From a virus, in UHGV virus genome UHGV-0142834: 13,224 bases of DNA, one strand, 5' to 3'. Every line of letters begins with the position of its first letter. Position 1 is the stretch's first letter. Below, piece by piece: positions 270 through 13,172 of this stretch. Below the pieces are notes generated by a model. That model was given only the letters and a program-made list of their open reading frames with translations. It did not search any database and had not been told where the DNA came from. Position numbers and translations under genes: made by a program.

Positions 270-1448
270 ATGGCTATAAGCGACACAAAACTGCGTACTA
301 TTTATGGTAAACCATATTCGGGCCCACAAGAAGTGGCTGATGCCGATGGCCTCAGCGTACGAATTTCACCGAAGGGGGTCATCCAGTTCCAGTACCGCTA
401 TCGCTGGCATGGCAAGCCTAATCGACTTGGGCTTGGTCGATACCCATCCCTGTCTTTGAAGGATGCCAGACAGATCACTGCTGACTTGCGAAAGCTCTAT
501 TTCTCAGGAACGGATCCACGCACCTATTTTGAAGAGAAGGTGGAGAACTCCATGACGGTCGCCCAGTGTCTCGACTACTGGTTCGACAACTACGTCTCTA
601 CAACTCTCAGAGAAAAGACCCAGGCACTTTACCGATCAACGGTTATGAAGCGCATGCATGACGCCTTTCCTAATCGTCCGGCATCTTCTATCACGGTTAA
701 GCAATGGGTTGACCTGCTTACCGAAGAAGAAAGAGATAATCCACGCCGAGCAAGGCAGGTGCTAAGTCAACTAAGATCAGCAATAAGTTGGTGCATGCGG
801 CGTCAGTTGATAGATAGTTGCGCAATTATGAGCATCCAACCAAGGGACTTCGGCTCCCGCGCTGAGGTAGGGGATCGGGTACTGTCGTATCACGAACTGG
901 CTAAGATTTGGCTTGCTATTGAAAGAAGCCGTGCGTCTACGTCAAATAAGCTACTTCATCAGATGCTTATGCTGTGGGGGGCGAGGCTCTCAGAGCTTAG
1001 GCTGGCAACAAAGACAGAATTTGACCTGCTGGACAACGTATGGACCGTACCGAAAGAGCATAGCAAGATGGGTAATGTTATCCGTCGTCCAATCTTCGAA
1101 CAAATTAAGCCTTTTCTCGAAAAGGCCATGACAACGTACAATGATGTTCTTTTCCCTGGAGAAGACATAAACAAACCGATCAGCATCGCTGCAGCCAACC
1201 GATTCGTAAATAGAATAAGGGGAGGGATGGATCTAGGTTACTGGCGAACACATGATTTCAGAAGAACGCTTGTTACACGTCTGTCCGAGATGAATGTCGA
1301 GCCTCATGTTACTGAGCGAATGCTCGGTCATGAACTTGGCGGGATAATGTCCGTGTACAATAAACACGACTGGATAGAGGCTCAGCGCAAAGCTTATGAG
1401 CTTCACGCTGATAAATTGTTCTGGCACATCAGGAGCATTTCTGGTTAA
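270..1448 (+). CDS. int: Tyrosine site-specific integrase, P4-type (N-terminal arm-binding-like domain plus C-terminal catalytic domain)
   Basis: 392 aa ORF with ATG start. N-terminus (GKPYS..DGLSVRISPKG..FQYRYRWHGK..LGLGRYPSLSLKDAR) resembles the P4/IntS-type integrase N-domain. C-terminus has tyrosine recombinase motifs (HDFRRT, LGHELGG..SVYNKHDW with the catalytic Tyr). Confidence 0.9.
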   Translation: MAISDTKLRTIYGKPYSGPQEVADADGLSVRISPKGVIQFQYRYRWHGKPNRLGLGRYPSLSLKDARQITADLRKLYFSGTDPRTYFEEKVENSMTVAQCLDYWFDNYVSTTLREKTQALYRSTVMKRMHDAFPNRPASSITVKQWVDLLTEEERDNPRRARQVLSQLRSAISWCMRRQLIDSCAIMSIQPRDFGSRAEVGDRVLSYHELAKIWLAIERSRASTSNKLLHQMLMLWGARLSELRLATKTEFDLLDNVWTVPKEHSKMGNVIRRPIFEQIKPFLEKAMTTYNDVLFPGEDINKPISIAAANRFVNRIRGGMDLGYWRTHDFRRTLVTRLSEMNVEPHVTERMLGHELGGIMSVYNKHDWIEAQRKAYELHADKLFWHIRSISG

Positions 1449-1620
1449 CGCCACCGTTAAGAATCCACCCTTCAACAGCTTCACGAAGGTATGATTTTGG
1501 GTGGGTTCTGACTGGCTTCGGAAATCCGTGCCGTTTGGTATAGTTCCAGATTGTCTGACGTGATGAAACACCGAGCTTGTTCATCACTTCTTTCTCAGGA
1601 ATCAGGCTGGTATCGGTCAT
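1429..1620 (-). CDS. xis: AlpA/Xis-like excisionase or small DNA-binding regulator
   Basis: 63 aa, ATG at 1620 with GGAG 9 nt upstream. The pattern LIPEKEVMNKLGVS..TIWNYTKRHGFPKPV..EAVEGWI matches the AlpA/phage excisionase HTH signature (..FPKPV....W...EVE.W). Its 3' end overlaps the int 3' end convergently by 20 bp. Confidence 0.7.
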   Translation of the reverse strand: MTDTSLIPEKEVMNKLGVSSRQTIWNYTKRHGFPKPVRTHPKSYLREAVEGWILNGGVNQKCS

Positions 1621-1720
1621 CTTAATTCTCCAGGCAAAAAGAAACCGCCATATAGCGGCTCTATCAGATATGTACAGGCCTCATCGAGTGTGAGGCGGTG
1701 TGATTTCTTTATTTCCACTC

Positions 1721-1936
1721 TTAATGTTTGTCAGTGAATGGTTTCTCCATCTCCATTAATGCCTTATTCATCTCCTTTCGTAACTCTATAGCCATCCTGA
1801 CGGCTTCAACCTGAGCAGGATGTCGGTTAATTGCTGGAGAATATCGTCGGGAGCGAAGGATTGAGAAAACAAAGATAATGCAAGCAACTATCTGAATTGC
1901 ATTGCATGTTATTGATACAATGTGAATTGCAGCCAT
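1721..1936 (-). CDS. Hypothetical small membrane protein (N-terminal hydrophobic helix)
   Basis: 71 aa ORF, ATG at 1936 preceded by a G-rich stretch. N-terminal segment IVSITCNAIQIVACIIFVFSIL is hydrophobic. Same strand as the rest of the early-left operon. Confidence 0.4.
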   Translation of the reverse strand: MAAIHIVSITCNAIQIVACIIFVFSILRSRRYSPAINRHPAQVEAVRMAIELRKEMNKALMEMEKPFTDKH

Positions 1937-1959
1937 CTACTACCCCCAAAAAACCTCCA

Positions 1960-2127
1960 TCAGGCGGCTGGGTGTTCTTTCAGTTCTTCAATTCGAATAT
2001 TGGTTACGTCTGCATGTGCTATCTGCGCCCATAGCATCCAGTGGTCATAGCAGTCGTTGATGTTCTCTGCTTCGATAACTCTGTTGAATGGTTCTCCATT
2101 CCATTCACCTGTGACTCGGAAGTGCAT
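1960..2127 (-). CDS. Hypothetical small phage protein (55 aa), not on the supplied ORF track
   Basis: Hand-translated: MHFRVTGEWNGEPFNRVIEAENINDCYDHWMLWAQIAHADVTNIRIEELKEHPAA. ATG at 2127..2125 preceded by GGAG with a 7-nt spacer. Lies between the two flanking minus-strand genes without overlap. Confidence 0.45.
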   Translation of the reverse strand: MHFRVTGEWNGEPFNRVIEAENINDCYDHWMLWAQIAHADVTNIRIEELKEHPAA

Positions 2128-2199
2128 TTATCATCTCCATAAAACAAAACTCGCCGTAGCGAGTTCAGATAAAAGAAATCCCCGCGAGTGCGAGGATTG

Positions 2200-2484
2200 T
2201 TATTCATTGCCGATATTCACCTTTATCGCGTACACCTTTACCGGTTTATCGCCGAAGTGAGGATGTGTGATTGTCTTGATTTCATATCCGTCATACGGGA
2301 CGTCAATTCTGCGGCTGGAATCGTCGCGCTTCGGATATCCCTTTGTGATAATCAGGCGGTCATACTCCCGGAACATAATTCGCTTATTCCAGTAGTCATT
2401 ACACAGGCGATACTCTTCCGTTTTCTCTCCGCGAATCATGGCATCGAAGTATTCACCTTTGACGGCAAGTTGCAGGTTAGCCAC
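2200..2484 (-). CDS. Hypothetical protein, possibly ASCH/PUA-like (DUF3850-like) fold
   Basis: 94 aa ORF with a GTG start at 2484..2482 preceded by AGGAGG with a 7-nt spacer. The N-terminal pattern (LAVKGEYFDAMIRGEKTEEYR) resembles ASCH/DUF3850 proteins; this assignment is from memory and weak. Confidence 0.55.
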   Translation of the reverse strand: MANLQLAVKGEYFDAMIRGEKTEEYRLCNDYWNKRIMFREYDRLIITKGYPKRDDSSRRIDVPYDGYEIKTITHPHFGDKPVKVYAIKVNIGNE

Positions 2485-3031
2485 GGTTAACCTCCTGAGG
2501 CGGTTCTGGTAGATGCATCCAGTGGGTTACTCCGTCAATTGGTTCATCGTCGTCGTACTCCAATGCGGCTATATAGAACCCGTCACGACGAGAATAAGAA
2601 ATCCCGGACATTACAATGCCATCCGAAACAACAATAATGTCACCCGTTTCTTCCGGCATTCGCTCACTACAGCTTATCCAACCACCCGGAGTTACCGGAG
2701 AGTTGCCCGATAGTGCATTCTGCTCCAGTGATGCTTTCACAAACCACGCAGCCTGAACTATTACGCCATGAATCCAGCGCAAATCGGCATCACGATTTTC
2801 TTTTTTCATTTTTTCGCCACTTAAAGCCTTGCTTACGTGACTTTTTACCAGATTTTCGTGTAATTCTTTTGCTTCTTCAATTGTGAAACCACCAGGCAAA
2901 TTTGGCGCTTCTGCTTCCAGCGATGCCAGAGCAATTTCATAAGCCCGACGCTCAATATTGTCTCGGACGTCCAGGCTGCCTATACGCTCTCTGATTTCTT
3001 TAATCAGTTCTTTGTCGGTTAAAGTGGTCAT
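2477..3031 (-). CDS. Phage protein with C-terminal DUF551-like domain (Ea22-family type)
   Basis: 184 aa, ATG at 3031. C-terminus GGWISCSERMPEE..DGFYIAALEYDD..VTHWMHLPEPP matches the DUF551 signature common in lambdoid early-left genes. Confidence 0.7.
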   Translation of the reverse strand: MTTLTDKELIKEIRERIGSLDVRDNIERRAYEIALASLEAEAPNLPGGFTIEEAKELHENLVKSHVSKALSGEKMKKENRDADLRWIHGVIVQAAWFVKASLEQNALSGNSPVTPGGWISCSERMPEETGDIIVVSDGIVMSGISYSRRDGFYIAALEYDDDEPIDGVTHWMHLPEPPQEVNRG

Positions 3032-3041
3032 AAATTATGCC

Positions 3042-3278
3042 TCAGTTGTATCCGATTGGATTAACCGCAACAATAACGCCATCCGCGAACAAATCTTTAA
3101 TGAGGTGTTCGCTCGGCTCGCCTTTTTCGTACTCTTCAATAAGGTAAGTGTCTCCATCCTCATTGATATAAACTGGAAGAATGGAACCGTTGATGAAGTA
3201 GGTTCCGTTGTTATCGAGGATTTTTGCCTCGGCGATTTGTTTTTTGGTAAAACGATCTTCTTTTTTCAAAGTTGCCAT
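3042..3278 (-). CDS. Hypothetical phage protein (78 aa)
   Basis: Start moved to the internal ATG (MATLKKEDRF...) at 3278..3276, which is preceded by AAGGAG with about a 7-nt spacer. The longer track ORF (from 3350) would overlap the upstream ORF in another frame. Confidence 0.55.
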   Translation of the reverse strand: MATLKKEDRFTKKQIAEAKILDNNGTYFINGSILPVYINEDGDTYLIEEYEKGEPSEHLIKDLFADGVIVAVNPIGYN

Positions 3279-3279
3279 A

Positions 3280-3468
3280 TCACTCTCCTTTAGTGCGCAA
3301 ATGGTTTTTCCAGCGGTTTTGCGCCGCGCTGGGCTTTTTGCAAAAACCACAATCCATCATCCCGTAATATTTCATCAACCCCATCCGTCGGTTGCTGAGT
3401 CTCACCCACTGCCAGACGCCAGGAGCGTTTCTACGAACTAACAGAATCTTTGCTTTACGGTTTTTCAT
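3280..3468 (-). CDS. Hypothetical small basic protein (62 aa)
   Basis: ATG at 3468 preceded by AGGAGAG with an 8-nt spacer. Its TGA stop (3280..3282) lies 1 nt upstream of the next gene's ATG (3278). No recognisable motif. Confidence 0.35.
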   Translation of the reverse strand: MKNRKAKILLVRRNAPGVWQWVRLSNRRMGLMKYYGMMDCGFCKKPSAAQNRWKNHLRTKGE

Positions 3469-3640
3469 CGCTTTGCTCTCCTGCGTCTCTTTGCTGCTCG
3501 TCGTGCCGCTGCAATACCGGTATGGCGGCGCTTTGGTGCCGGGATGATGTTGTCAGCCATCAGGACATGTGGCTTTGCAATTAGCGCAGAAGCCCAAAAA
3601 CGAGTCGGGTACGGTAACAAGTCGATACATGCCACACGCA

Positions 3641-4129
3641 TTACTCACCTCCTTTGATGCGAATGCCTGTTGCAATGCTGTTTATGATGCTGTCAGTGCA
3701 TGGGGTAGAAAGCTGGGCATCTCCAGCAATTTTCATGACCTCAACATCTGCATATCGAATACCGAGGTGTATCAGACCGGCTATGCCTGACTTAAGCCGA
3801 GCATTTTCCATAAATAGAACTTTTGCCCGCTGTTTTTCTGCTTCAAGCTCAACACGCAGCTTCCCTACCGTTAGCGCAATTTCCTCGTTTTCCTGGTCGC
3901 GGCGTTTGATGTATTGCTGGTTTCTTTCCCGTTCATCCAGCAGTGCCAGCACGGTTTCTGGTCCGGTCAGAAATTTGAAGGCGTTGAGCGCATCAATATC
4001 CACACCGTAATCTTTAAGTTCCTGTTCACTTAACAAGTCATCATCAGCTGGCAACATTAACAGGCGTTCCATTGCTGGAATTGCACGTTCCGCCACCTCA
4101 CGCAGTGCCTGGTAATTAATTTCGCTCAC
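3641..4129 (-). CDS. Ead/Ea22-like coiled-coil phage protein (tentative)
   Basis: 162 aa ORF, GTG start at 4129..4127 preceded by AAAGGAGG with a 7-nt spacer. The GTG overlaps the upstream gene's TGA (GTGA coupling). N-terminus [11 protein letters not shown].. and the coiled-coil middle recall Ea22-like proteins; family call is from memory only. Confidence 0.6.
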   Translation of the reverse strand: MSEINYQALREVAERAIPAMERLLMLPADDDLLSEQELKDYGVDIDALNAFKFLTGPETVLALLDERERNQQYIKRRDQENEEIALTVGKLRVELEAEKQRAKVLFMENARLKSGIAGLIHLGIRYADVEVMKIAGDAQLSTPCTDSIINSIATGIRIKGGE

Positions 4130-4557
4130 TGGTTGCCTCCTTTGCGAAGCTGGGCAGCAAAGTCACGGATAGTGTCATCAAGGTCTGGGCACAACAGATG
4201 GTCAGCAAACATCTCTACCACCTGCGCCCGTACTTCAGCCAGGAAAGCATCGGTGGCTGGGGTTTCAGTAACATCATCTTCCCATTCGCCAAACTCCTCA
4301 CGACAAAAGTCATTAAATTCCTTCTCAGATTGCTTAAGCGAGGTATTTTCTGCAGCCATCTTCGCGCATTTAGCCTCAAGGTTATCAATCGTGATTCCAG
4401 CAGAACGACACTCCCGCAACGCCGTTTCCAGTTTTGATTCAAGCTCACCGAACTTACGCACCAGATATTCAGCGTTTGTTTCGTTAACCTTTAAATCTCG
4501 TGGGATGCATTTACCTTTCAGAAATCCATCCATCCCAATTAGTGACATTTGTTTCAT
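4126..4557 (-). CDS. Hypothetical acidic coiled-coil phage protein (143 aa from the ATG at 4557)
   Basis: The track ORF starts with GTG at 4575. The ATG at 4557..4555 overlaps the TGA of the upstream 54-aa ORF (ATGA coupling) and has GGAG/GGGAAG upstream. Start codon choice is uncertain. Confidence 0.6.
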
Positions 4558-4718
4558 TTCTTCCCACTCCGCCACATCGCATTCAGATATTTGTTTTGAT
4601 TCACTGACGGAAAAGAATTTCTCTTAAGTAATTCCTCTCTCGATGGCATTGGCTTTACGCGCTGGCGAATAATCATTTCTGCCGGAAGAATGCCGGGATT
4701 GTATGCAAGTCCTCTCAT
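4554..4718 (-). CDS. Hypothetical small protein (54 aa), not on the supplied ORF track
   Basis: Hand-translated: [57 protein letters not shown] at 4718..4716 preceded by AGAGGA with an 8-nt spacer. Its stop overlaps the downstream ATG (ATGA). Confidence 0.4.
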
Positions 4719-4734
4719 GGTAAATTCCTCTTTG

Positions 4735-5049
4735 TTAATTTATTCGTATGCCTGCTCTTTCTTCATCGAGTTTTTTTAGCTTGTATCGCATAGCTCTTAC
4801 TGAATAAATTGAGCGGCAGGTTGCAATTGCTATTTCTTCTGCGGAGAACTTACCGAAAAGTGATACTTCGGCTCTTGTCCATCGTCTTCCACGAAGTCGG
4901 CTAACAATGTCAGCTCCAATCCTTGTTGCTTTCGCCATTACTGCTTTTTCAGTCCTTTCCAGTTTTTCAGCGATAACTTCAACTGGCATTGTCGCCGCCA
5001 CTTCGCGCAAGAAATCGACTTCCCATTTCTCCCATGGAGTCTTTTTCAT
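4735..5049 (-). CDS. Small putative DNA-binding protein with two tandem GcrA/Myb-like HTH-like repeats
   Basis: 104 aa, ATG at 5049. Internal duplication visible by eye: [40 protein letters not shown] versus [35 protein letters not shown]. The RBS is weak. Confidence 0.55.
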
Positions 5050-5060
5050 AGGCGATACCG

Positions 5061-5543
5061 TTATTTGATAAGAAGTGAAGGTTTCCCAACCTTGAGTTGA
5101 GCGCCTGGGATATTTATTCCTGCTTTTAGTTGGTGCTTGATTGCCAACTTGTCGGCTTTAATTGTCGTTTCAAACTCAACGTATTCAGGAGGAAGGGCGC
5201 TTGAGTCGATGATTTCTACAGTTTCTGACGGTTTGCGGATTGTTACCTGGTGAATACCTGCTCTAATCTTTTTCTTGCCAACCATTTCAAGCGATGACGC
5301 TATATATGATTTGATGCTGTCAATCTTATTTTGAATTACTGCGGCTCGCTCATTCAGTGACTTTGCCTCTTCCTTGAGGCGTTCAGCATAACCAGATTCA
5401 TTTTTAATAATGGAAAGAAGTTGCTCTATTTTATCGATAAATTCTCCTTCCATGCCTTCTATTGTGTCAGCAATCATCTCTGGCTCTAAATCTGAATCCA
5501 TCAATTTTGCGTATTCATTGGCAATTTCATACAGTTTGCTCAC
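5061..5543 (-). CDS. Siphovirus Gp157-family protein, a recombination-module accessory protein
   Basis: Track ORF begins at a TTG placed directly after GGAGG, which is implausible. The GTG at 5543..5541 has GGAGG at a 6-nt spacer, giving a 160-aa product. N-terminal LYEIANEYAKLMDSD.. and C-terminal ..PPEY...IPGAQLKVGKPSLLIK match my recollection of the Gp157 family pattern; it sits directly downstream of recT. Confidence 0.6.
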   Translation of the reverse strand: MSKLYEIANEYAKLMDSDLEPEMIADTIEGMEGEFIDKIEQLLSIIKNESGYAERLKEEAKSLNERAAVIQNKIDSIKSYIASSLEMVGKKKIRAGIHQVTIRKPSETVEIIDSSALPPEYVEFETTIKADKLAIKHQLKAGINIPGAQLKVGKPSLLIK

Positions 5544-6429
5544 TGGCAACCTCCAGTTTCGCTTTGCATTCTGCGTAAATGGCTTGTACGTTCTGCTGCA
5601 ATTTCATTCCAGATGTCAGGCGATATGCTTCTGCAAAATATCGCTTCAAATCATCCATGTTTTCTGCCTGAGCCATTTCATCACAAAGAAGTTGTGCTTT
5701 TTCCATAATTTCCTGCTGGCGTTTCCGTTCATCTTCGCGGATATCTTCCTCTGATTTGTGCGGCATAACTGGTTCCTGATGCATACCTTCATCTTCGTTA
5801 AGCAGGTGAATGGCATTATCCAGTCGCTGGGCTTTAGGCCAGTATTTGCTGGCGCGTTTAACTATTGTTTTACGCGCCATCTCTTCCCAGAATGTCTTCC
5901 ACGGTCCATTCTTTGCCTTGCTCGTTGCTTCCACAGCTTTAATTTCTGCCAGACTCATTTCTTCAGTGAGGTAGTCACCATCTGCTGTTTTAACCGTACA
6001 ATAACCACCAACAATAGAGCCTCGCTCACCAAATGCGTTGTATTTGTGGGTTGGTGCTGAATCAAGGCCGTTTGATTCATAGGTGTCGTTTGAGTACACC
6101 AGTTTGCATTGCCCCCACTTAATTGATCCTGTCGACTGTGCAAGGTGAAGTAATCCCATATAGCTGATATCAAGGCAAACCATGCCGTCGCGCGGAACTA
6201 GATAAGCAAGTTTGCTGGCCGGGTTTAAGGTGATGCCGATCGCCGCAACATTGATGATGGCGTTCTGTGCGCTGGTTGGATTTGCCAGTGCCGTTTTAGC
6301 CAGGTAATCGTTTTTCTGGAAATACTGAATTGCAAACTGGCTTTCCTTAGCCCATGTCACCGTCTGTTCAGTCAATGCTCCGCAGAATAACTGCTCCTGC
6401 TGTTTAACGAATTCAACGATATTGCTCAT
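5527..6429 (-). CDS. recT: RecT-family single-strand annealing recombinase
   Basis: 300 aa, ATG at 6429 with GGAG at an 8-nt spacer. The motif NGPWKTFWEEMARKTIVKRASKYWP closely parallels Rac RecT NGPWVTHWEEMAKKTAIRRLFKYLP. The ATG overlaps the upstream gene's TGA (ATGA). Confidence 0.85.
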   Translation of the reverse strand: MSNIVEFVKQQEQLFCGALTEQTVTWAKESQFAIQYFQKNDYLAKTALANPTSAQNAIINVAAIGITLNPASKLAYLVPRDGMVCLDISYMGLLHLAQSTGSIKWGQCKLVYSNDTYESNGLDSAPTHKYNAFGERGSIVGGYCTVKTADGDYLTEEMSLAEIKAVEATSKAKNGPWKTFWEEMARKTIVKRASKYWPKAQRLDNAIHLLNEDEGMHQEPVMPHKSEEDIREDERKRQQEIMEKAQLLCDEMAQAENMDDLKRYFAEAYRLTSGMKLQQNVQAIYAECKAKLEVASEQTV

Positions 6430-6737
6430 GCTGCTTCTCCAAAAATGTGTCTGCGCTTGAATATTGCGAAGGCATATTCAGCCTTAACTCTTTCGGTTAT
6501 TGCATCCCAGAACCATTCAGCGGCTTTTTCCTGATAGTTACAGTCATCATCTTCCAGCCAGTCGATAGCGTCCTTAGTGTGTTCATCTGGTTTATATGAG
6601 CGAAGCATTTCGCTTATTGGGTCGCAACGTTTGCAGAGGCGATCAACTTCACTGTTGATTCGTTCGTAATCATCATCGGTAAAACTTGCGATGATTTGCG
6701 ATATTTCACGCTTATCATTCAGAGTCAGAATCATCAT
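6426..6737 (-). CDS. Hypothetical acidic protein in the gam position (possible host-nuclease inhibitor analogue)
   Basis: 103 aa, ATG at 6737 (or 6734) preceded by AGGAG with a 5-nt spacer. Rich in Asp/Glu and Trp (DDDYER, DWLEDDDCNYQEKAAEWFWD). Translationally coupled to recT. No similarity to lambda Gam noted by eye. Confidence 0.6.
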   Translation of the reverse strand: MMILTLNDKREISQIIASFTDDDYERINSEVDRLCKRCDPISEMLRSYKPDEHTKDAIDWLEDDDCNYQEKAAEWFWDAITERVKAEYAFAIFKRRHIFGEAA

Positions 6738-6822
6738 CTTTCTCCTGTTCTTTGTGCTGATTGAGCATTTTGTTCATCTGACGAATGAATTCTTCGTCTG
6801 ACCAGTTATCTGTAAAACTCAT
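6715..6822 (-). CDS. Small ORF (35 aa) in the kil position, not on the supplied ORF track
   Basis: Hand-translated: MSFTDNWSDEEFIRQMNKMLNQHKEQEKDDDSDSE. Its ATG (6822..6820) overlaps the TGA of the CIII-like gene (ATGA), mirroring the lambda cIII-kil overlap. Its 3' end overlaps the start of the 103-aa gene in another frame. Confidence 0.35.
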   Translation of the reverse strand: MSFTDNWSDEEFIRQMNKMLNQHKEQEKDDDSDSE

Positions 6823-6989
6823 GGACGGACTTGTTGTTTCAAAATATCCCAAAGCTTTTCGAGCAAACTTTTCATTCTTGGTTGTTTAAAGTCTGCTCCG
6901 GTTAAAATATTTTTTCGTGAATGCTGTACCGATAAAATCGGGTTGAAAGGGCGAACCGATGCCGCCCCTGCAATAGCGAACTGTTGCAT
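6819..6989 (-). CDS. CIII-like protein (candidate FtsH inhibitor, 56 aa)
   Basis: Start placed at the ATG 6989..6987 with AAGGAG at a 6-nt spacer; the track ORF starts further up at a TTG. N-terminus MQQFAIAG resembles lambda CIII MQYAIAG, and the C-terminal SLLEKLWDILKQ resembles the CIII amphipathic helix. Comparison is from memory. Confidence 0.45.
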   Translation of the reverse strand: MQQFAIAGAASVRPFNPILSVQHSRKNILTGADFKQPRMKSLLEKLWDILKQQVRP

Positions 6990-7050
6990 AGGATGCTCCT
7001 TCTGTTTGATTGCATAACGAAAACGCCTCGAGTGAAGCGTTATTGGTATG

Positions 7051-7079
7051 CATATAAAAAGGCCCTCACACTGGAGGGC
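7051..7079 (-). terminator. Intrinsic terminator for leftward transcription (tL-like), between the accessory cassette and the cIII-like gene
   Basis: Minus-strand hairpin GCCCTC-cagtgt-GAGGGC (7062..7079 on +) followed on the minus strand by CTTTTTATAT. The stem is only 6 bp. Confidence 0.45.
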
Positions 7080-7183
7080 AAAGAAGATTTCCAATAATCA
7101 GAACAAGTCGGCTCCTGTTTAGTTACGAGCGACATTGCTCCGTGTATTCACTCGTTGGAATGAATACACAGTGCTTACTCGTA

Positions 7184-7654
7184 CTAATAAAATACCCAAT
7201 TTTCTGTTTCTTGGTTGTGCCCAAAGTTATATTCAATATCTGGTGTTGATGTATCAATATTCTTCATCCCATCAACAAGAGTTGATACAACAGCCAAATC
7301 TTGTTTGATTCTCATTAAATGGTATTTCTTCCGGCGCAATAAACTCTCAATGGCAAGTTTCTTCGTTGGGAATGCAAAAGATCTTTCTGCATTTTTTGCT
7401 ACTTTCTTAATTGCATATCTATTTCTCCTTTGTTTCCATTCCTGTAACCACTGATTTGGTGCTGGTTTAAAATTAACAATCCAATGCGCAGGAACCAACC
7501 ATGCATAATGCTCTGTCTGATGAAAAGCTATATATTGAAGTGCGAATATTTTTATCCCATCTTCTTCAACTGTCGCTTGGAATCTCCAGAAAACAGGCAT
7601 TCCATCATGTTCAGTTTCTGATTCAGGAAAAGGTACGCTCCATGATTTTGTCAT
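7184..7654 (-). CDS. Hypothetical protein (156 aa), accessory cassette gene 2
   Basis: ATG at 7654 preceded by GAGGTG with about a 5-nt spacer. Trp-rich with a basic C-terminal half; no motif I recognise. The local sequence is AT-rich. Confidence 0.65.
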   Translation of the reverse strand: MTKSWSVPFPESETEHDGMPVFWRFQATVEEDGIKIFALQYIAFHQTEHYAWLVPAHWIVNFKPAPNQWLQEWKQRRNRYAIKKVAKNAERSFAFPTKKLAIESLLRRKKYHLMRIKQDLAVVSTLVDGMKNIDTSTPDIEYNFGHNQETENWVFY

Positions 7655-7717
7655 ATCTCACCTCAAATAATTCAGTGCAGTGTTTATTCTGTTGTTAGTG
7701 CCAAAAATAAAGGCCGA

Positions 7718-8341
7718 CTATGCGGCCTCGGAAGGAAGTCCAATCATCTTATTCAAATCTTCTACCCGTAAAGCAGGAAGTGCTGTACTTGCTTTATCTG
7801 CTTCTTTTGGTAGCAATTCTTTGCTTTCAGGCCAAACTTCAATAAGTCGCTTAACTGTTGTGACTGAGTTCAAAGCACCCCATACATTTGATTCGATATC
7901 CTTTTTCAAGGCTTCAAGGTTTTGTTGCAATGCGCAGATTTCATCAAACCTTTTTGTTATTTCGTGTTCTGCGTCAAACATGCACTTATCTTTGGTTGGA
8001 GTAGGGAGAAATATATCTTCGCCATTGCCGTCTTTCCCATATGAATGCCATCCAACCCTTCTGCCAGATACAGTCAGATAAATTGAAGTAGAACGAAAAT
8101 CGTATGAGTAAAATGAACATCCCATCTTTTCAAGTTCTTCACTTATAGCTACCAACTTGGATGATAACTGATCCACTTCCTCAGTTTTCTTTTTACCGCC
8201 AAACGCAATAACTCTGGCGTCAAGTGCAAGCTGGTTCTTTAACTTTGTTACTTCTTCAAGTTCAGTGAAAACCCCAGACTTAATTAAAGCGTTACGAGCG
8301 ATTTCCTCTTTCATTCTCGTAGTTAAGCGGATTGATGACAT
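7718..8341 (-). CDS. Hypothetical protein (207 aa), accessory cassette gene 1
   Basis: Start placed at the ATG 8341..8339 (MSSIRLTTRMKEE..) preceded by GAGAGG with a 7-nt spacer; the track's longer ORF would overlap the end of N. Coiled-coil-like N-terminal half; no motif I recognise. Confidence 0.65.
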   Translation of the reverse strand: MSSIRLTTRMKEEIARNALIKSGVFTELEEVTKLKNQLALDARVIAFGGKKKTEEVDQLSSKLVAISEELEKMGCSFYSYDFRSTSIYLTVSGRRVGWHSYGKDGNGEDIFLPTPTKDKCMFDAEHEITKRFDEICALQQNLEALKKDIESNVWGALNSVTTVKRLIEVWPESKELLPKEADKASTALPALRVEDLNKMIGLPSEAA

Positions 8342-8352
8342 ATTAATTCCTC

Positions 8353-8679
8353 TCAAATAAGTGGTTTGCTGCCTAATTTCATTTTCTGGCGACCAACACA
8401 AGTCACACCCATTTCACTGCGTGGCTTGCTGTACCATGTGCGCTGATTCTTGCGCTCAATACGTTGCAGGTTGCTTTCAATCTGTTCGTGGTATTCAGCC
8501 AGCACCGTAAGGTCTATCGGATTCAGTGCGCTTTCTACTCGTGATTTCGGTTTGCGATTCAGCGAGAGAATAGGGCGGTTAACTGGTTTTGCGCTTACCC
8601 CAACCAACAGGGGATTTGCTGCTTTCCATTGAGCCTGTTTCTCTGCGCGACGTTCGCGGCGGCGTGTTTGTGCATCCAT
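8353..8679 (-). CDS. N: Antitermination protein N (lambda N-like)
   Basis: Start at the ATG 8679..8677 with AGGAG at a 7-nt spacer. MDAQTRRRERRAEKQAQWKAANPLLVGVSAKPVNRPILSLNRKPKSRVESALNPIDLTVLAEYH.. matches the lambda N arginine-rich motif and most of the protein as I recall it; the C-terminus diverges. Confidence 0.9.
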   Translation of the reverse strand: MDAQTRRRERRAEKQAQWKAANPLLVGVSAKPVNRPILSLNRKPKSRVESALNPIDLTVLAEYHEQIESNLQRIERKNQRTWYSKPRSEMGVTCVGRQKMKLGSKPLI

Positions 8680-8851
8680 CTGGATTCTCCTGTCAGTTAG
8701 CTTTGGTGGTGTGGTAGGTGGGAGACCCATTTCGACCTGCTTCGGCCGACTTCAATTCGGCAATAGTTCCGCAGGCCTCGCCGCTTTACGTGCGACATAT
8801 TCCCATCCATGAACCCTTCACCACACCCCAAAGCCTTCTGCTTTGAATGCT

Positions 8852-8882
8852 GCCCTTCTTCAGGGCTTAATTTTTAAGAGCG
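8852..8882 (-). promoter_or_regulatory. nutL: nutL site (boxA CGCTCTTAA and boxB GCCCTGAAGAAGGGC on the minus strand)
   Basis: Plus strand reads gcccttcttcagggc (8852..8866) and ttaagagcg (8874..8882), the reverse complements of lambda nutL boxB and boxA. Located between pL and N. Confidence 0.85.
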
Positions 8883-8922
8883 TCACCTTCATGGTGGTCA
8901 GTGCGTCCTGCTGATGGCTTAA

Positions 8923-8963
8923 AATATACCTACAGGTAAAACCCATGTCTATACCTGTAGGTA
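8923..8963 (-). promoter_or_regulatory. pL-like promoter with two overlapping dyad operators (OL)
   Basis: On the minus strand: -35 TAGACA (8946..8951), 17-bp spacer, -10 TATATT (8923..8928). Dyad operators TACCTACAGGTA (8927..8938) and TACCTGTAGGTA (8952..8963) overlap the -10 and -35. A third, split dyad TTACCTG-N10-CAGGTAA lies at 8984..9007. Confidence 0.5.
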
Positions 8964-9020
8964 AATAAAATTGATGTGAGAGTTTACCTGCTTGAATTTT
9001 CAGGTAATTAATTTTTTGGA

Positions 9021-9049
9021 TTGATATAAAAAAGCCCGCTTTGCGGGCT
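9021..9049 (-). terminator. Intrinsic terminator ending the cI-membrane protein transcript
   Basis: GC hairpin AGCCCGC-ttt-GCGGGCT (9033..9049) followed on the minus strand by TTTTTTTATAT. It sits 12 nt downstream of the membrane-protein stop at 9061. Confidence 0.7.
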
Positions 9050-9060
9050 GAAAGGAGATG

Positions 9061-9357
9061 TCAGAAGCTATTTGGATTGCTTGGCCATTGCGGCAATTTT
9101 GATTCTACTGGGGTGTGTTTGGGTTTGAGTCCGTTTAAGTAGTCAAGGCGCTCAATGGCGCATTTATACATAGCAATCTGCTCTGATGACATGTCGTCGT
9201 ATGACATGCCTTTGAACTTTTTAATTATCGATTCTGCCTCATGTATAAGATTCTTCTTCCTCATGAGTTCAGCTGTATGCTTAGAGCTTACAGGAGATAA
9301 CTTTGCCCATATGAAGCAGATGATTACAACAGCGACTACTATGCCGGGTATAAACAT
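9061..9357 (-). CDS. Small single-pass membrane protein downstream of cI (rexB/sie slot); candidate superinfection-exclusion or defense protein
   Basis: ATG at 9357 gives a 98-aa product starting MFIPGIVVAVVIICFIWAKL (TM helix) followed by a charged soluble tail. An alternative TTG at 9375 overlaps the cI stop. Co-transcribed with cI and followed by a strong terminator. Confidence 0.6.
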   Translation of the reverse strand: MFIPGIVVAVVIICFIWAKLSPVSSKHTAELMRKKNLIHEAESIIKKFKGMSYDDMSSEQIAMYKCAIERLDYLNGLKPKHTPVESKLPQWPSNPNSF

Positions 9358-9371
9358 TTGCTGCTTTATCC

Positions 9372-10058
9372 TCAAACTTTTGGCAGATCGTCCTGGTCTA
9401 CGTACCTGGTGTGTTTCACAATAGCTGAAACAAAATGCATTTTATCAACTTCTTCAACAGGAAGAGTGATTGGGCGGTGATCACTGTTTATGCTACTAAA
9501 CTGATAATCACCGTCTCTTGTTTTGTTCATGATCTTTATCATGTTGTGACCGTCTTTGGTCCTTACAAAGACTTCATCACCTGGATGTACTGGCGTATTT
9601 GGTTCAATAACAACATATTCTCCTGACTGAATCCTTGGCCACATGCTGTCACCCTTAACCTTCAGACCGTAAGCATCTTTATCGCCGCTGTAGATGCTTA
9701 ACCAACCGGATCTGAATTCAATCATATCCACTGAGCCATCAACTCCCAAAACGGCTTCACCAATTACCGGAACAAAACCCGCACGAACGTTACCCGCAAA
9801 CTCAAGATGGTCCGTAGCTCCAGCTTTACCATCTGCAAGCATGTCCATCCATCCGCGTGGGAGATTAAAAGATTTTTCAATTAGTTCCATCATATCGTCA
9901 GCAATGCGTTTTTTTCCGCTTTTTCCTTCCGGATACAGCATTCTGGAAACGTATGATGGTTCCCTTTCTATTCGACGAGCCAACTCTGAGGCCTTTCCAT
10001 TACAGAATCGGTCTCTTATCTCTATCAGCCTTAGTCGTCTTTGTTCGTATTTATCCAT
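9372..10058 (-). CDS. cI: CI-type prophage repressor (N-terminal HTH, C-terminal LexA-like S24 peptidase domain)
   Basis: 228 aa, ATG at 10058. HTH region NGKASELARRIEREPSYVSRML. C-terminal KVKGDSMWPRIQSGEYVVIEP..GDEVFVRTKDGHNMIKIM contains the S24 Ser/Lys dyad context. Divergent from cro with operators between them. Confidence 0.9.
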   Translation of the reverse strand: MDKYEQRRLRLIEIRDRFCNGKASELARRIEREPSYVSRMLYPEGKSGKKRIADDMMELIEKSFNLPRGWMDMLADGKAGATDHLEFAGNVRAGFVPVIGEAVLGVDGSVDMIEFRSGWLSIYSGDKDAYGLKVKGDSMWPRIQSGEYVVIEPNTPVHPGDEVFVRTKDGHNMIKIMNKTRDGDYQFSSINSDHRPITLPVEEVDKMHFVSAIVKHTRYVDQDDLPKV

Positions 10059-11799: not shown

Positions 11800-13172
11800 A
11801 ACAGGATATCGAAGCGAGCGTTATCGGTGGCCTGCTGATTGGTGGATTAACACCAACTGCCAGTGACGTTCTGGCAACGCTTGAGCCGGAAGCGTTTTCA
11901 ATTCCGCTCTACCGGAAAGCCTTCGAGGTTATCCGCAAGCAGGCGCGAAACAGAAATTTAATCGACGCGCTGATGGTTGCCGAGGCGTGCGGAGAGGAGC
12001 ATTTCACGTCAATCCTGATGACCAGCAAAAACTGCCCGAGTTCCGCAAACCTGAAGGGATATGCCGGAATGGTCGCGGATAACTATCACCGCCGTCTGGT
12101 GCTGGAAATCATGGATGAAATGCGTGAACCAATTCAGAGCGGAACCATCGACGCATCGAGTCAGGCGATGGATGAACTTGTAAAGCGTCTTTCAGCCATC
12201 AGAAAGCCCCGTGACGAGGTTAAACCTGTACGGTTAGGGGAAATCATAACTGACTACACTGACATGCTTGACAGGCGTCTGAGGAACGGAGAAGAGTCAG
12301 ATACCCTGAAGACCGGAATCGAAGAACTTGATGCTATCACCGGAGGGATGAACGCGGAAGACCTGGTGATAATAGCTGCTCGTCCTGGTATGGGGAAAAC
12401 CGAACTGGCGCTGAAGATTGCCGAAGGCGTTGCAAGCCGTGTTATTCCTGGTTCTGACGTCCGGCGCGGAGTGTTGATTTTCTCGATGGAAATGAGCGCA
12501 TTGCAGATTGCAGAGCGAAGCATTGCCAACGCCGGGAGGATGTCGGTTAGCGTGCTACGAAATCCTGCATCGATGGATGACGAAGGCTGGGCGCGCGTTG
12601 CTAACGGCATGAATCAGCTTGCGGATTTGGATGTATGGGTAGTCGATGCATCGCGGTTATCGGTCGAAGAAATACGCTCAATCGCAGAACGGCACAAACA
12701 GGAAAATCCAAACCTGTCACTCATCATGGCGGATTATCTTGGCCTGATTGAGAAGCCGAAAGCAGACCGCAACGACCTCGCAATTGCTCACATCTCAGGA
12801 AGCCTTAAGGCGATGGCGAAAGACCTGAAAACGCCTGTTATCTCCCTAAGTCAGCTTTCGCGCGATGTTGAGAAGCGACCAAACAAACGCCCGACAAACG
12901 CAGATTTGCGTGATTCAGGAAGCATTGAACAGGACGCAGACTCAATCATCATGCTCTATAGGGAAGCGGTATATGACGAGAACAGTAGCGCCGCGCCATT
13001 TGCTGAAATCATCGTGACGAAAAACCGTTTTGGCTCGCTTGGTACGGTTTACCAGCGGTTCTGCAACGGACACTTTGTTGCATGTGACCAGGATGAAGCC
13101 AGACAGATTTGCACAGCATCAAATGCACCCGCTGCACGTGGCAGGCGATATGCACAAGGGGCTGACGTATGA
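11796..13172 (+). CDS. Replicative DNA helicase, DnaB family (phage-encoded)
   Basis: 458 aa. The ATG overlaps the O stop (ATGA). Walker A context [18 protein letters not shown]. Downstream DnaB-like motifs ([38 protein letters not shown]). Confidence 0.9.

Follow-up and report, generated by a model that had tools for sequence, protein, structure and literature searches.

The stretch of DNA considered here, 13,224 nucleotides of the viral genome UHGV-0142834 (in the following "the window", that is, the whole 13.2-kb stretch), carries on its minus strand a recT gene and, directly downstream, a gene of the Gp157 family. The pair quite probably belongs to the Rec module of a lambdoid prophage of the HK140/mEpX1 type, which runs leftward from pL, combines an annealase with a Mu-Gam-like protein, includes no exonuclease, and represents a kind of module already known. 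The initial annotation, prepared from the letters of the DNA, had placed recT and the downstream Gp157-family gene on this strand and had recognized no exonuclease partner; both genes were confirmed at these positions by PF03837, PF05565 and the PHROGs, and the missing exonuclease was borne out by the searches described below. The features that carry the argument are as follows:

5527-6429, minus strand: recT, single-strand annealing protein (putative annealase), 300 amino acids (PF03837, TIGR00616, phrog_148)
5785-6429, minus strand: annealing core of RecT, residues 1-215, common to six aligned RecT proteins
5530-5784, minus strand: C-terminal tail of RecT, here called CTD-A, residues 216-300 (about 85 residues), specific to Gp157-linked modules
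5061-5543, minus strand: gp157, Sipho_Gp157 family, putative Mu Gam-like DNA-end-binding protein, 160 amino acids (PF05565, phrog_253)

RecT matches PF03837 with E=2.5e-33 (115.7 bits against a cut-off of 24, profile positions 5-186 of 198), TIGR00616 of NCBIfam with 76.8 bits (cut-off 52.65), and phrog_148 with E=7.7e-92, such that membership in the RecT family (PF03837/TIGR00616) lies above the curated cut-offs across the annealing domain. The family is shared with the RecET system of the Rac prophage; the window has no RecE, and its RecT was rejected as a Rac-type protein, the equivalog model PRK09846 giving 90.9 bits against a cut-off of 296. The gp157 gene was listed as an open reading frame (ORF) at 5061-5549 that opens at TTG 5549, but its true start is probably the GTG at 5543, since a GGAGG at 5554-5550 precedes this codon by 6 nt and homologues comprise 160 amino acids. 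The product covers the complete PF05565 profile (positions 1-162 of 162, E=1.7e-37, 129.4 bits, cut-off 28.6), a family matched by all 143 diverse Gp157 relatives that were collected, and hits phrog_253, "Mu Gam-like end protection", with E=9.4e-54. An exhaustive profile search put the size of the Gp157 family at 12,673 representative clusters at E<=1e-3.

Within the interval 1429-9375, scanned on both strands and wider than the one for which the initial annotation had proposed searches with hidden Markov models (HMMs), no match to YqaJ, RecE, PD-(D/E)xK or any nuclease family was obtained at E<=0.1 in Pfam, PHROGs, NCBIfam or PADLOC. The Pfam scan took in every ORF, including antisense ORFs of at least 100 amino acids, and the other three libraries were applied to the plausible genes. 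A six-frame tblastn search of the window with the exonucleases of lambda, ArgO145 and ValSw3-3 returned nothing below E=1, which speaks against a pseudogene remnant of Exo. As a positive control, the YqaJ model of Pfam recovered, with E=3.8e-28 and 7.2e-22, the exonucleases beside the RecT genes of ArgO145 and ValSw3-3, whose RecT proteins are 59-67% identical to that of the window; because this model so readily detects the exonucleases of related RecT modules, the negative result is meaningful. Two panels of homologous loci were compiled, one consisting of 80 viral contigs with a near-identical gp157 ("close loci"), the other of 20 species-representative genomes ("species-level loci", 19 of them evaluable for the adjacency of recT and gp157), and lambda-Exo-type proteins were encountered in none of the 80 close loci and, within 7 kb, in none of the 20 species-level loci. 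No domain of a single-stranded DNA-binding protein (SSB) was found in any window ORF scanned with Pfam and NCBIfam, and the count of Chi sites in the window (0, with 0.29 expected) is uninformative.

Compared with two-component recombinases such as lambda Red or RecET, the module possesses neither a 5'-3' exonuclease gene nor a C-terminal domain of the Bet type on its annealase. It displays instead the features of nuclease-less modules of the P22 type, namely a strand-annealing protein (SAP), no nuclease, no SSB, a contiguous gene of the anti-RecBCD type, and a position in the middle of the pL operon. The premise of the initial annotation that RecT proteins usually come with an exonuclease is weaker for lambdoid phages than it had been put, given that 84 of 246 lambdoid Rec modules are reported in the main text of Zheng et al. 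2025 (PMC12315714) to have no nuclease gene.

The module is already catalogued and ordinary, and the absence of a nuclease from it is not new. Its other conserved genes are:

6426-6737, minus strand: p103, acidic protein of 103 amino acids (phrog_3486), overlapping recT by ATGA and translationally coupled to it
4735-5049, minus strand: p104, basic protein of 104 amino acids with two helix-turn-helix (HTH) repeats (phrog_323, E=2.8e-20)
4554-4718, minus strand: DUF2737 protein, 54 amino acids, last conserved gene of the cassette (PF10930, E=2.6e-31)

Over positions 4715-7174 the window is approximately 93% identical in DNA to HK140, with similar matches to mEpX1, Kapi1, Gally and Dewey (approximately 93-95%) and to Louie. 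The encoded proteins are 98% (p103/gp42), 87% (RecT/gp41), 96% (Gp157/gp40), 99% (p104/gp39) and 96% (DUF2737/gp37) identical to their HK140 counterparts, RecT being the most diverged of the block. In the main text of PMC12315714, from which the module class of HK140 was taken, this phage is named as having a strand-annealing protein plus MuGam and no nuclease, and proteins of the MuGam type are described as binding DNA ends and thereby blocking RecBCD. The HK140/mEpX1 module (SAP sequence type 4 plus MuGam) has the same genes in the same order as the window, again with no nuclease and no SSB; HK140 differs only in the flanking cargo, carrying ral and sieB between N and cIII where the window has the genes for an Nmad5-domain protein and the protein p156. 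The initial annotation, which had spoken of a RecT plus Gp157-family module, missed both the homology of Gp157 to Mu Gam and the fact that the module type is a recognized one.

A count in 5,426 complete E. coli genomes gave 302 with the four-gene block, for which the PGAP annotation reads "RecT family recombinase" and "siphovirus Gp157 family protein", and the cassette persists across genera at 54-80% identity. Among the close loci, recT and p104 are each present in 79 of 80 and the DUF2737 gene in 73 of 80. A few contigs with actinobacterial titles (Actinomycetes, Micromonospora, Streptomyces) also contain a p103-recT-gp157 arrangement of enterobacterial type, with a RecT core approximately 89% identical to that of the window; most likely they are contaminants and not genuine prophages.

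The genes are tightly packed, with p103 and recT sharing ATGA, gp157 starting 17 nt before the stop of recT, and p104 following 11 nt after gp157. This compactness bears on the idea that the locus is the decayed, non-functional remnant of a RecT-Exo module from which the exonuclease was deleted, as might be imagined from other phages, in which this RecT core goes together with lambda-Exo-type genes. Such decay is very improbable for a cassette that is intact and translationally coupled, recurs in the named phages HK140, mEpX1, Kapi1, Gally and Dewey as well as in the E. coli genomes mentioned above, is kept across genera, shows no trace of an Exo pseudogene, and ends its RecT in a different conserved domain instead of a truncation.

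This C-terminal domain of RecT deserves closer attention. An alignment of six RecT proteins, which takes in the Exo-linked RecTs of ArgO145 and of Vibrio phage ValSw3-3 and in which the whole-protein identity to the window RecT amounts to 59-91%, revealed conservation as far as G215, followed by divergent tails, and a tblastn search with full-length RecT matched Stx phages over a span of about residues 1-215/230 at 68-79% identity. The tail CTD-A was detected by tblastn in 24 records of phages of Escherichia, Klebsiella, Pantoea, Aeromonas and Pseudomonas, a set that coincides exactly with the 24 records whose Gp157 homologues are the closest (54-98% identity). CTD-A and Gp157 always reside in the same module, either adjacent or separated only by an inserted HNH gene, as in Louie and PdC23. 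In the latter, a Pantoea phage with the HNH gene inserted before gp157, the annealase has a P22-Erf-like core (59% identity), and its last 46 or so residues are 59% identical to CTD-A. RecT with CTD-A is encoded directly upstream of gp157 in 18 of the 19 evaluable species-level loci. The exception is Pseudenterobacter timonensis, where an element of the IS3 family occupies the place of recT directly upstream of gp157 (positions 6103-7483 of that locus), and in every other evaluable locus gp157 has an annealase beside it.

BLASTP and hhalign disclosed no similarity of CTD-A to the C-terminal domain of lambda Bet; in contrast, the Bet domain is matched at 53% identity (E=1.6e-26) by the tail of the Exo-linked RecT of ArgO145, and the ArgO145 gene is flanked by a GamL gene and by the gene for an exonuclease 87% identical to lambda Exo. 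The RecT tail hence tracks the downstream partner gene. In this context it is relevant that the C-terminal domain of lambda Bet binds lambda Exo and SSB, the complex of this domain with Exo being documented (PMC6393309), and that it is needed for recombination in vivo (PMC5052646). By analogy, and judging from co-variation and position, CTD-A may dock RecT to Gp157 in the way the Bet tail docks to Exo; alternative explanations are that CTD-A binds host SSB, or that adjacent DNA is plainly linked. The co-variation of CTD-A with Gp157, as read from the sequences, may be new.

The comparison with lambda Red (gam-bet-exo) and with ArgO145 (gamL-recT-exo-ssb) can be extended to the whole arrangement. 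All of these modules are located in the pL operon downstream of cIII/kil, and in all of them three slots can be distinguished, for a small acidic protein, an annealase, and a partner gene. The RecT proteins of ArgO145 and the window share 68% identity over residues 1-230 (tblastn) and 59% over the whole protein (alignment). The differences are that the third slot holds a YqaJ/lambda-Exo nuclease in lambda Red and ArgO145 and Gp157 in the window, that the tail of the window RecT is not of the Bet type, and that the first slot of the window is taken by p103, for which no homology to Gam or GamL could be detected.

At the profile level, it is supported that Gp157 is a remote homologue of Mu Gam, the Ku-like DNA-end binder of phage Mu that inhibits host nucleases and counters RecBCD. 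Alignment of the 143 Gp157-family sequences with a Mu Gam alignment of 54 homologues in hhalign gave a probability of 84.8% and E=6.6e-6 over 114 colinear columns, which include the patterns GKxK...R-x-PS and K-x-AI...G-x-x-K-x-G, and the two proteins are of comparable size (174 residues for Mu Gam and 160 for Gp157). Individually, 18 of the 143 Gp157-family representatives match PF07352 (Phage_Mu_Gam), the best with E=5.3e-6. The two proteins differ in family (PF07352 for Mu Gam, PF05565 for Gp157) and in PHROG (phrog_491 and phrog_253, respectively), their pairwise similarity is not significant, and Gp157 is linked to an annealase whereas Mu Gam is not.

Near-invariant positions among the 143 Gp157-family members are L6, K40, Y82, P120, K134, G144 and G149, and no Asp, Glu or His is conserved across them, which argues against Gp157 as a metal-dependent nuclease. 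The AlphaFold 2 model (mean predicted local distance difference test score, pLDDT, 95.6) consists of a long helix of the coiled-coil type and a small C-terminal domain; an earlier model from a shallow alignment reached a pLDDT of 69, and its Foldseek search was uninformative. These properties are of importance for the view that Gp157 is itself the resection enzyme, a nuclease of new fold in the position of Exo. It could be supported by the location of gp157 immediately downstream of recT, which is the very position of the lambda-Exo-type gene in ArgO145 and ValSw3-3, and by the co-variation of the RecT tail with Gp157, for which the Bet tail and Exo offer a parallel. A protein with no conserved residue of the kind that would hold a catalytic metal, with homology to the non-catalytic end-binder Mu Gam, and with such a helix-dominated model is, however, a most implausible nuclease.

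Some records label Gp157 homologues "resistance protein", and the original description of orf157 of Sfi21 reportedly suggested a phage-exclusion or resistance protein, so that Gp157 might have nothing to do with recombination and merely happen to adjoin recT. This we regard as unlikely, although not quite to the same degree as a catalytic role. Gp157 is encoded systematically beside four unrelated or distant types of annealase, RecT, Erf, Sak and Sak4, in phages of both Gram-negative and Gram-positive bacteria (its pairing with diverse annealases is described in PMC8093625); in the window, gp157 overlaps the stop codon of recT, and to this are added its co-variation with the RecT tail and its profile-level homology to Mu Gam. 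The distant Gp157 representatives lie mostly on short contigs, and their context added little.

The slot upstream of recT contains p103, which has no Pfam match and belongs to a family of approximately 120 clusters, confined to Enterobacterales, none of which carries a functional name. Its isoelectric point (pI) of 4.64 is close to the 4.6 of GamL. Among the close loci, this slot holds p103 only in 77 of 80, a lambda-type Gam only in 2, and 1 locus is truncated; among the species-level loci, 7 have p103 in this slot, 4 a lambda-type Gam and 5 GamL, and no locus combines two of these. Candidate homology of p103 to Abc2, Arf, lambda Gam or GamL was rejected, nothing significant being obtained by BLASTP or hhalign, and a profile search against PDB sequences retrieved designed repeat proteins only. 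Position and alternation suggest p103 as a possible analogue of inhibitors of the Gam type, and the alternation of p103, Gam and GamL, a reading drawn from sequence comparison, may be new. In the module of Serratia symbiotica (positions 3705-5108 of the locus), p103 is replaced by an unrelated ORF of 117 amino acids, which is preceded by an ORF of 305 amino acids; neither has a Pfam match, and the shorter one has no PHROG match either.

Taken together with the known behaviour of Mu Gam, the following course of events may be envisaged. Dimers of Gp157 would bind to linear phage DNA at its ends and, in the manner of Mu Gam, guard these against RecBCD and other exonucleases. RecT would most probably anneal single-stranded DNA (ssDNA) that is made by host enzymes, for example through resection of the RecQ/RecJ type, or exposed at replication forks and gaps; with its ssDNA coming from the host, the module would depend on the host for strand resection. 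From co-variation and position, CTD-A would tether RecT to Gp157 and so put the latter into the "Exo slot" of a triad resembling gam-bet-exo, and from the same kind of evidence p103 would fill the "Gam slot".

Several points weigh against this reading. The window Gp157 on its own does not match PF07352 at E<=0.1, and its BLASTP comparison with Mu Gam is not significant (E=0.6). Binding of DNA ends and protection from RecBCD are extrapolated to Gp157 from Mu Gam over a remote relationship, and the literature yielded no experiment with a member of this Gp157 subfamily. In roughly half of the species-level modules, Gp157 is accompanied by a genuine lambda Gam or GamL, and consequently Gp157 is unlikely to be merely an inhibitor of RecBCD; its role may differ. 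If Gp157 blocked all exonucleases at the ends, the source of ssDNA for RecT would be left unexplained. Finally, the co-variation of CTD-A and Gp157 could amount to simple linkage of neighbouring DNA. A more specific proposal, which we put forward as tentative and rather doubtful in its entirety, is that of a three-part machine working with no nuclease of its own, in which p103 is the analogue of Gam/GamL, CTD-A the adaptor to Gp157, and Gp157 an end binder of the Ku/Mu-Gam kind that loads RecT at the ends. If this were true, Gp157 would be an annealase-loading end-binding factor and not just an inhibitor of RecBCD.

Downstream of gp157, p104 invites comparison with phages P22 and Mu. Its PHROG, phrog_323 ("transcriptional regulator, D5-like"), is also matched by P22 Abc1 (1.3e-23) and by Mu gp9 (5.2e-29), with p104 and Abc1 covering regions of the profile that overlap only in part (145-269 and 93-190, respectively). 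In BLASTP, p104 is weakly similar to Mu gp9 (E=5e-5) and does not align with P22 Abc1. A gp9 homologue is encoded next to gam, directly upstream of it, in 50 of 50 Mu-type loci where it is detectable, such that the gene of a phrog_323 HTH protein adjoins gam in Mu as it adjoins gp157 in the window; this suggests a recurring link of the phrog_323 HTH family with genes for end protection or anti-RecBCD functions. Abc1 itself is an HTH protein with a counter-defence phenotype of unknown mechanism (bioRxiv 10.1101/2023.04.06.535777). The record of Gally (OV696608.1, positions 4036-4350) labels the p104 homologue "Anti-RecBCD protein 1, similar to P22 Abc1", a designation which, with no BLASTP alignment behind it, goes beyond the evidence. 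Genes of the p104 type are absent beside gp157 in HK639, PdC23 and several other genera, and as they are not conserved outside the E. coli/Citrobacter-type cassettes, p104 can be considered accessory instead of a core partner.

With the P22 module (arf-erf-abc1-abc2) the window shares the combination of an annealase with an anti-RecBCD function, the absence of a phage exonuclease, dependence on host enzymes (predicted for the window), and the common PHROG of p104 and Abc1. The two differ in the annealase, which is Erf in P22 and RecT in the window, and in the anti-RecBCD protein, which is Abc2 in P22 and for which the candidate in the window is Mu Gam-like. Homologues of Abc2 and Arf were not found by BLASTP or in the close loci.

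The surroundings of the module correspond to the integration, early-left and immunity region of an E. coli-type lambdoid prophage, with the following features:

270-1448, plus strand: integrase, 99% identical to the HK140 integrase
1429-1620, minus strand: AlpA-type excisionase
6819-6989, minus strand: cIII-like gene, upstream boundary of the module, inside the segment 93% identical to HK140, where gp43 of HK140 is annotated as cIII
7184-7654, minus strand: p156, basic protein of 156 amino acids, variable cargo (phrog_1636, E=2.7e-112)
7718-8341, minus strand: Nmad5-domain protein, variable cargo, between N and the cIII-like gene (PF18757, E=3.4e-70)
8353-8679, minus strand: N
9372-10058, minus strand: cI-like S24 repressor
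Right of the repressor, plus strand: cro, cII, an O-like replication protein and a DnaB-like helicase

In order of transcription, the pL operon comprises N, the Nmad5-domain protein, p156, the cIII-like gene, p103, recT, gp157, p104, DUF2737, Ead/Ea22, DUF551 and small unknowns, the Rec module being placed between the cIII-like gene and the ea22 region. The cIII-like gene has no Pfam match; its product begins with MQQFAIAG, which presumably resembles the N-terminus of lambda cIII. The initial annotation had spoken of small acidic or unknown proteins upstream of recT, and p103 (pI 4.64) and p45 (pI 4.21) are in keeping with this. The latter, an acidic ORF of 45 amino acids at 6715-6852 on the minus strand, is not supported as Arf or Kil and is probably spurious despite a partial match to phrog_17766, since it shares sequence with the beginning of p103 as well as with the last part of the cIII-like gene, and HK140 has no annotated counterpart. 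On the minus strand at 9061-9375, a 104-amino-acid ORF (phrog_10450) with a hydrophobic N-terminal segment (IPGIVVAVVIICFIWAKL) overlaps the cI-like repressor gene and lies directly downstream of it, a position like that of exclusion genes of the rex or sie type, which are transcribed together with cI.

For the Nmad5-domain protein, the listed ORF (227 amino acids) starts at TTG 8401 and overlaps N, and the Pfam match suggests ATG 8341 as the true start. It has no match among PDB sequences or in PADLOC, and p156 has none in Pfam, NCBIfam, PADLOC or PDB sequences. The two proteins occur in only 10 and 15 of the 80 close loci, respectively, and are absent from HK140, mEpX1 and Gally as well as from the module as it occurs in Enterobacter and Serratia; being so rare among near-identical cassettes, they represent variable cargo and not partners of the Rec module. 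These counts speak against the proposal that an uncharacterized neighbour (Nmad5, p156, p103, p149 or another) is a novel exonuclease working with RecT. Several window ORFs are indeed without assigned function, and for the Nmad5-domain protein an enzymatic role or a part in nucleotide modification has been predicted; Nmad5 proved toxic when cloned, and an nmad5 gene has been linked to sensing by the defence system Tmn (PMC11846954). The neighbours, however, gave no nuclease match in the four HMM libraries or among PDB sequences, p103 is small, acidic and replaced elsewhere by Gam/GamL, which are inhibitors of nucleases and not nucleases, and the neighbours conserved with the module are just this acidic 103-residue protein, the HTH protein and a 54-residue peptide, so that there is very little to commend a hidden exonuclease. 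Of the two sources of activity considered in the initial annotation, reliance on host nucleases is accordingly the favoured one, and supply by a neighbour is disfavoured, as only the Nmad5-domain protein and p156 would have the size for it, and both are variable cargo with no nuclease signature.

As it stands, the result is of little consequence, in that a common and catalogued nuclease-less module of E. coli lambdoid prophages has been re-identified, and the only parts that might be new are the co-variation of CTD-A with Gp157 and the alternation of p103, Gam and GamL. It does illustrate that phage annealases often act with no exonuclease of their own, which is relevant to the mining of RecT genes for recombineering, where a RecT derived from a module of this sort may require Gp157 or p103 as partners, or a specific host background. 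How annealases are delivered to DNA ends in nuclease-less modules could be approached through the co-varying RecT tail and the p103/Gam/GamL alternation, and the same handles bear on the role of the very large Gp157 family (>12,000 clusters at 50% identity).

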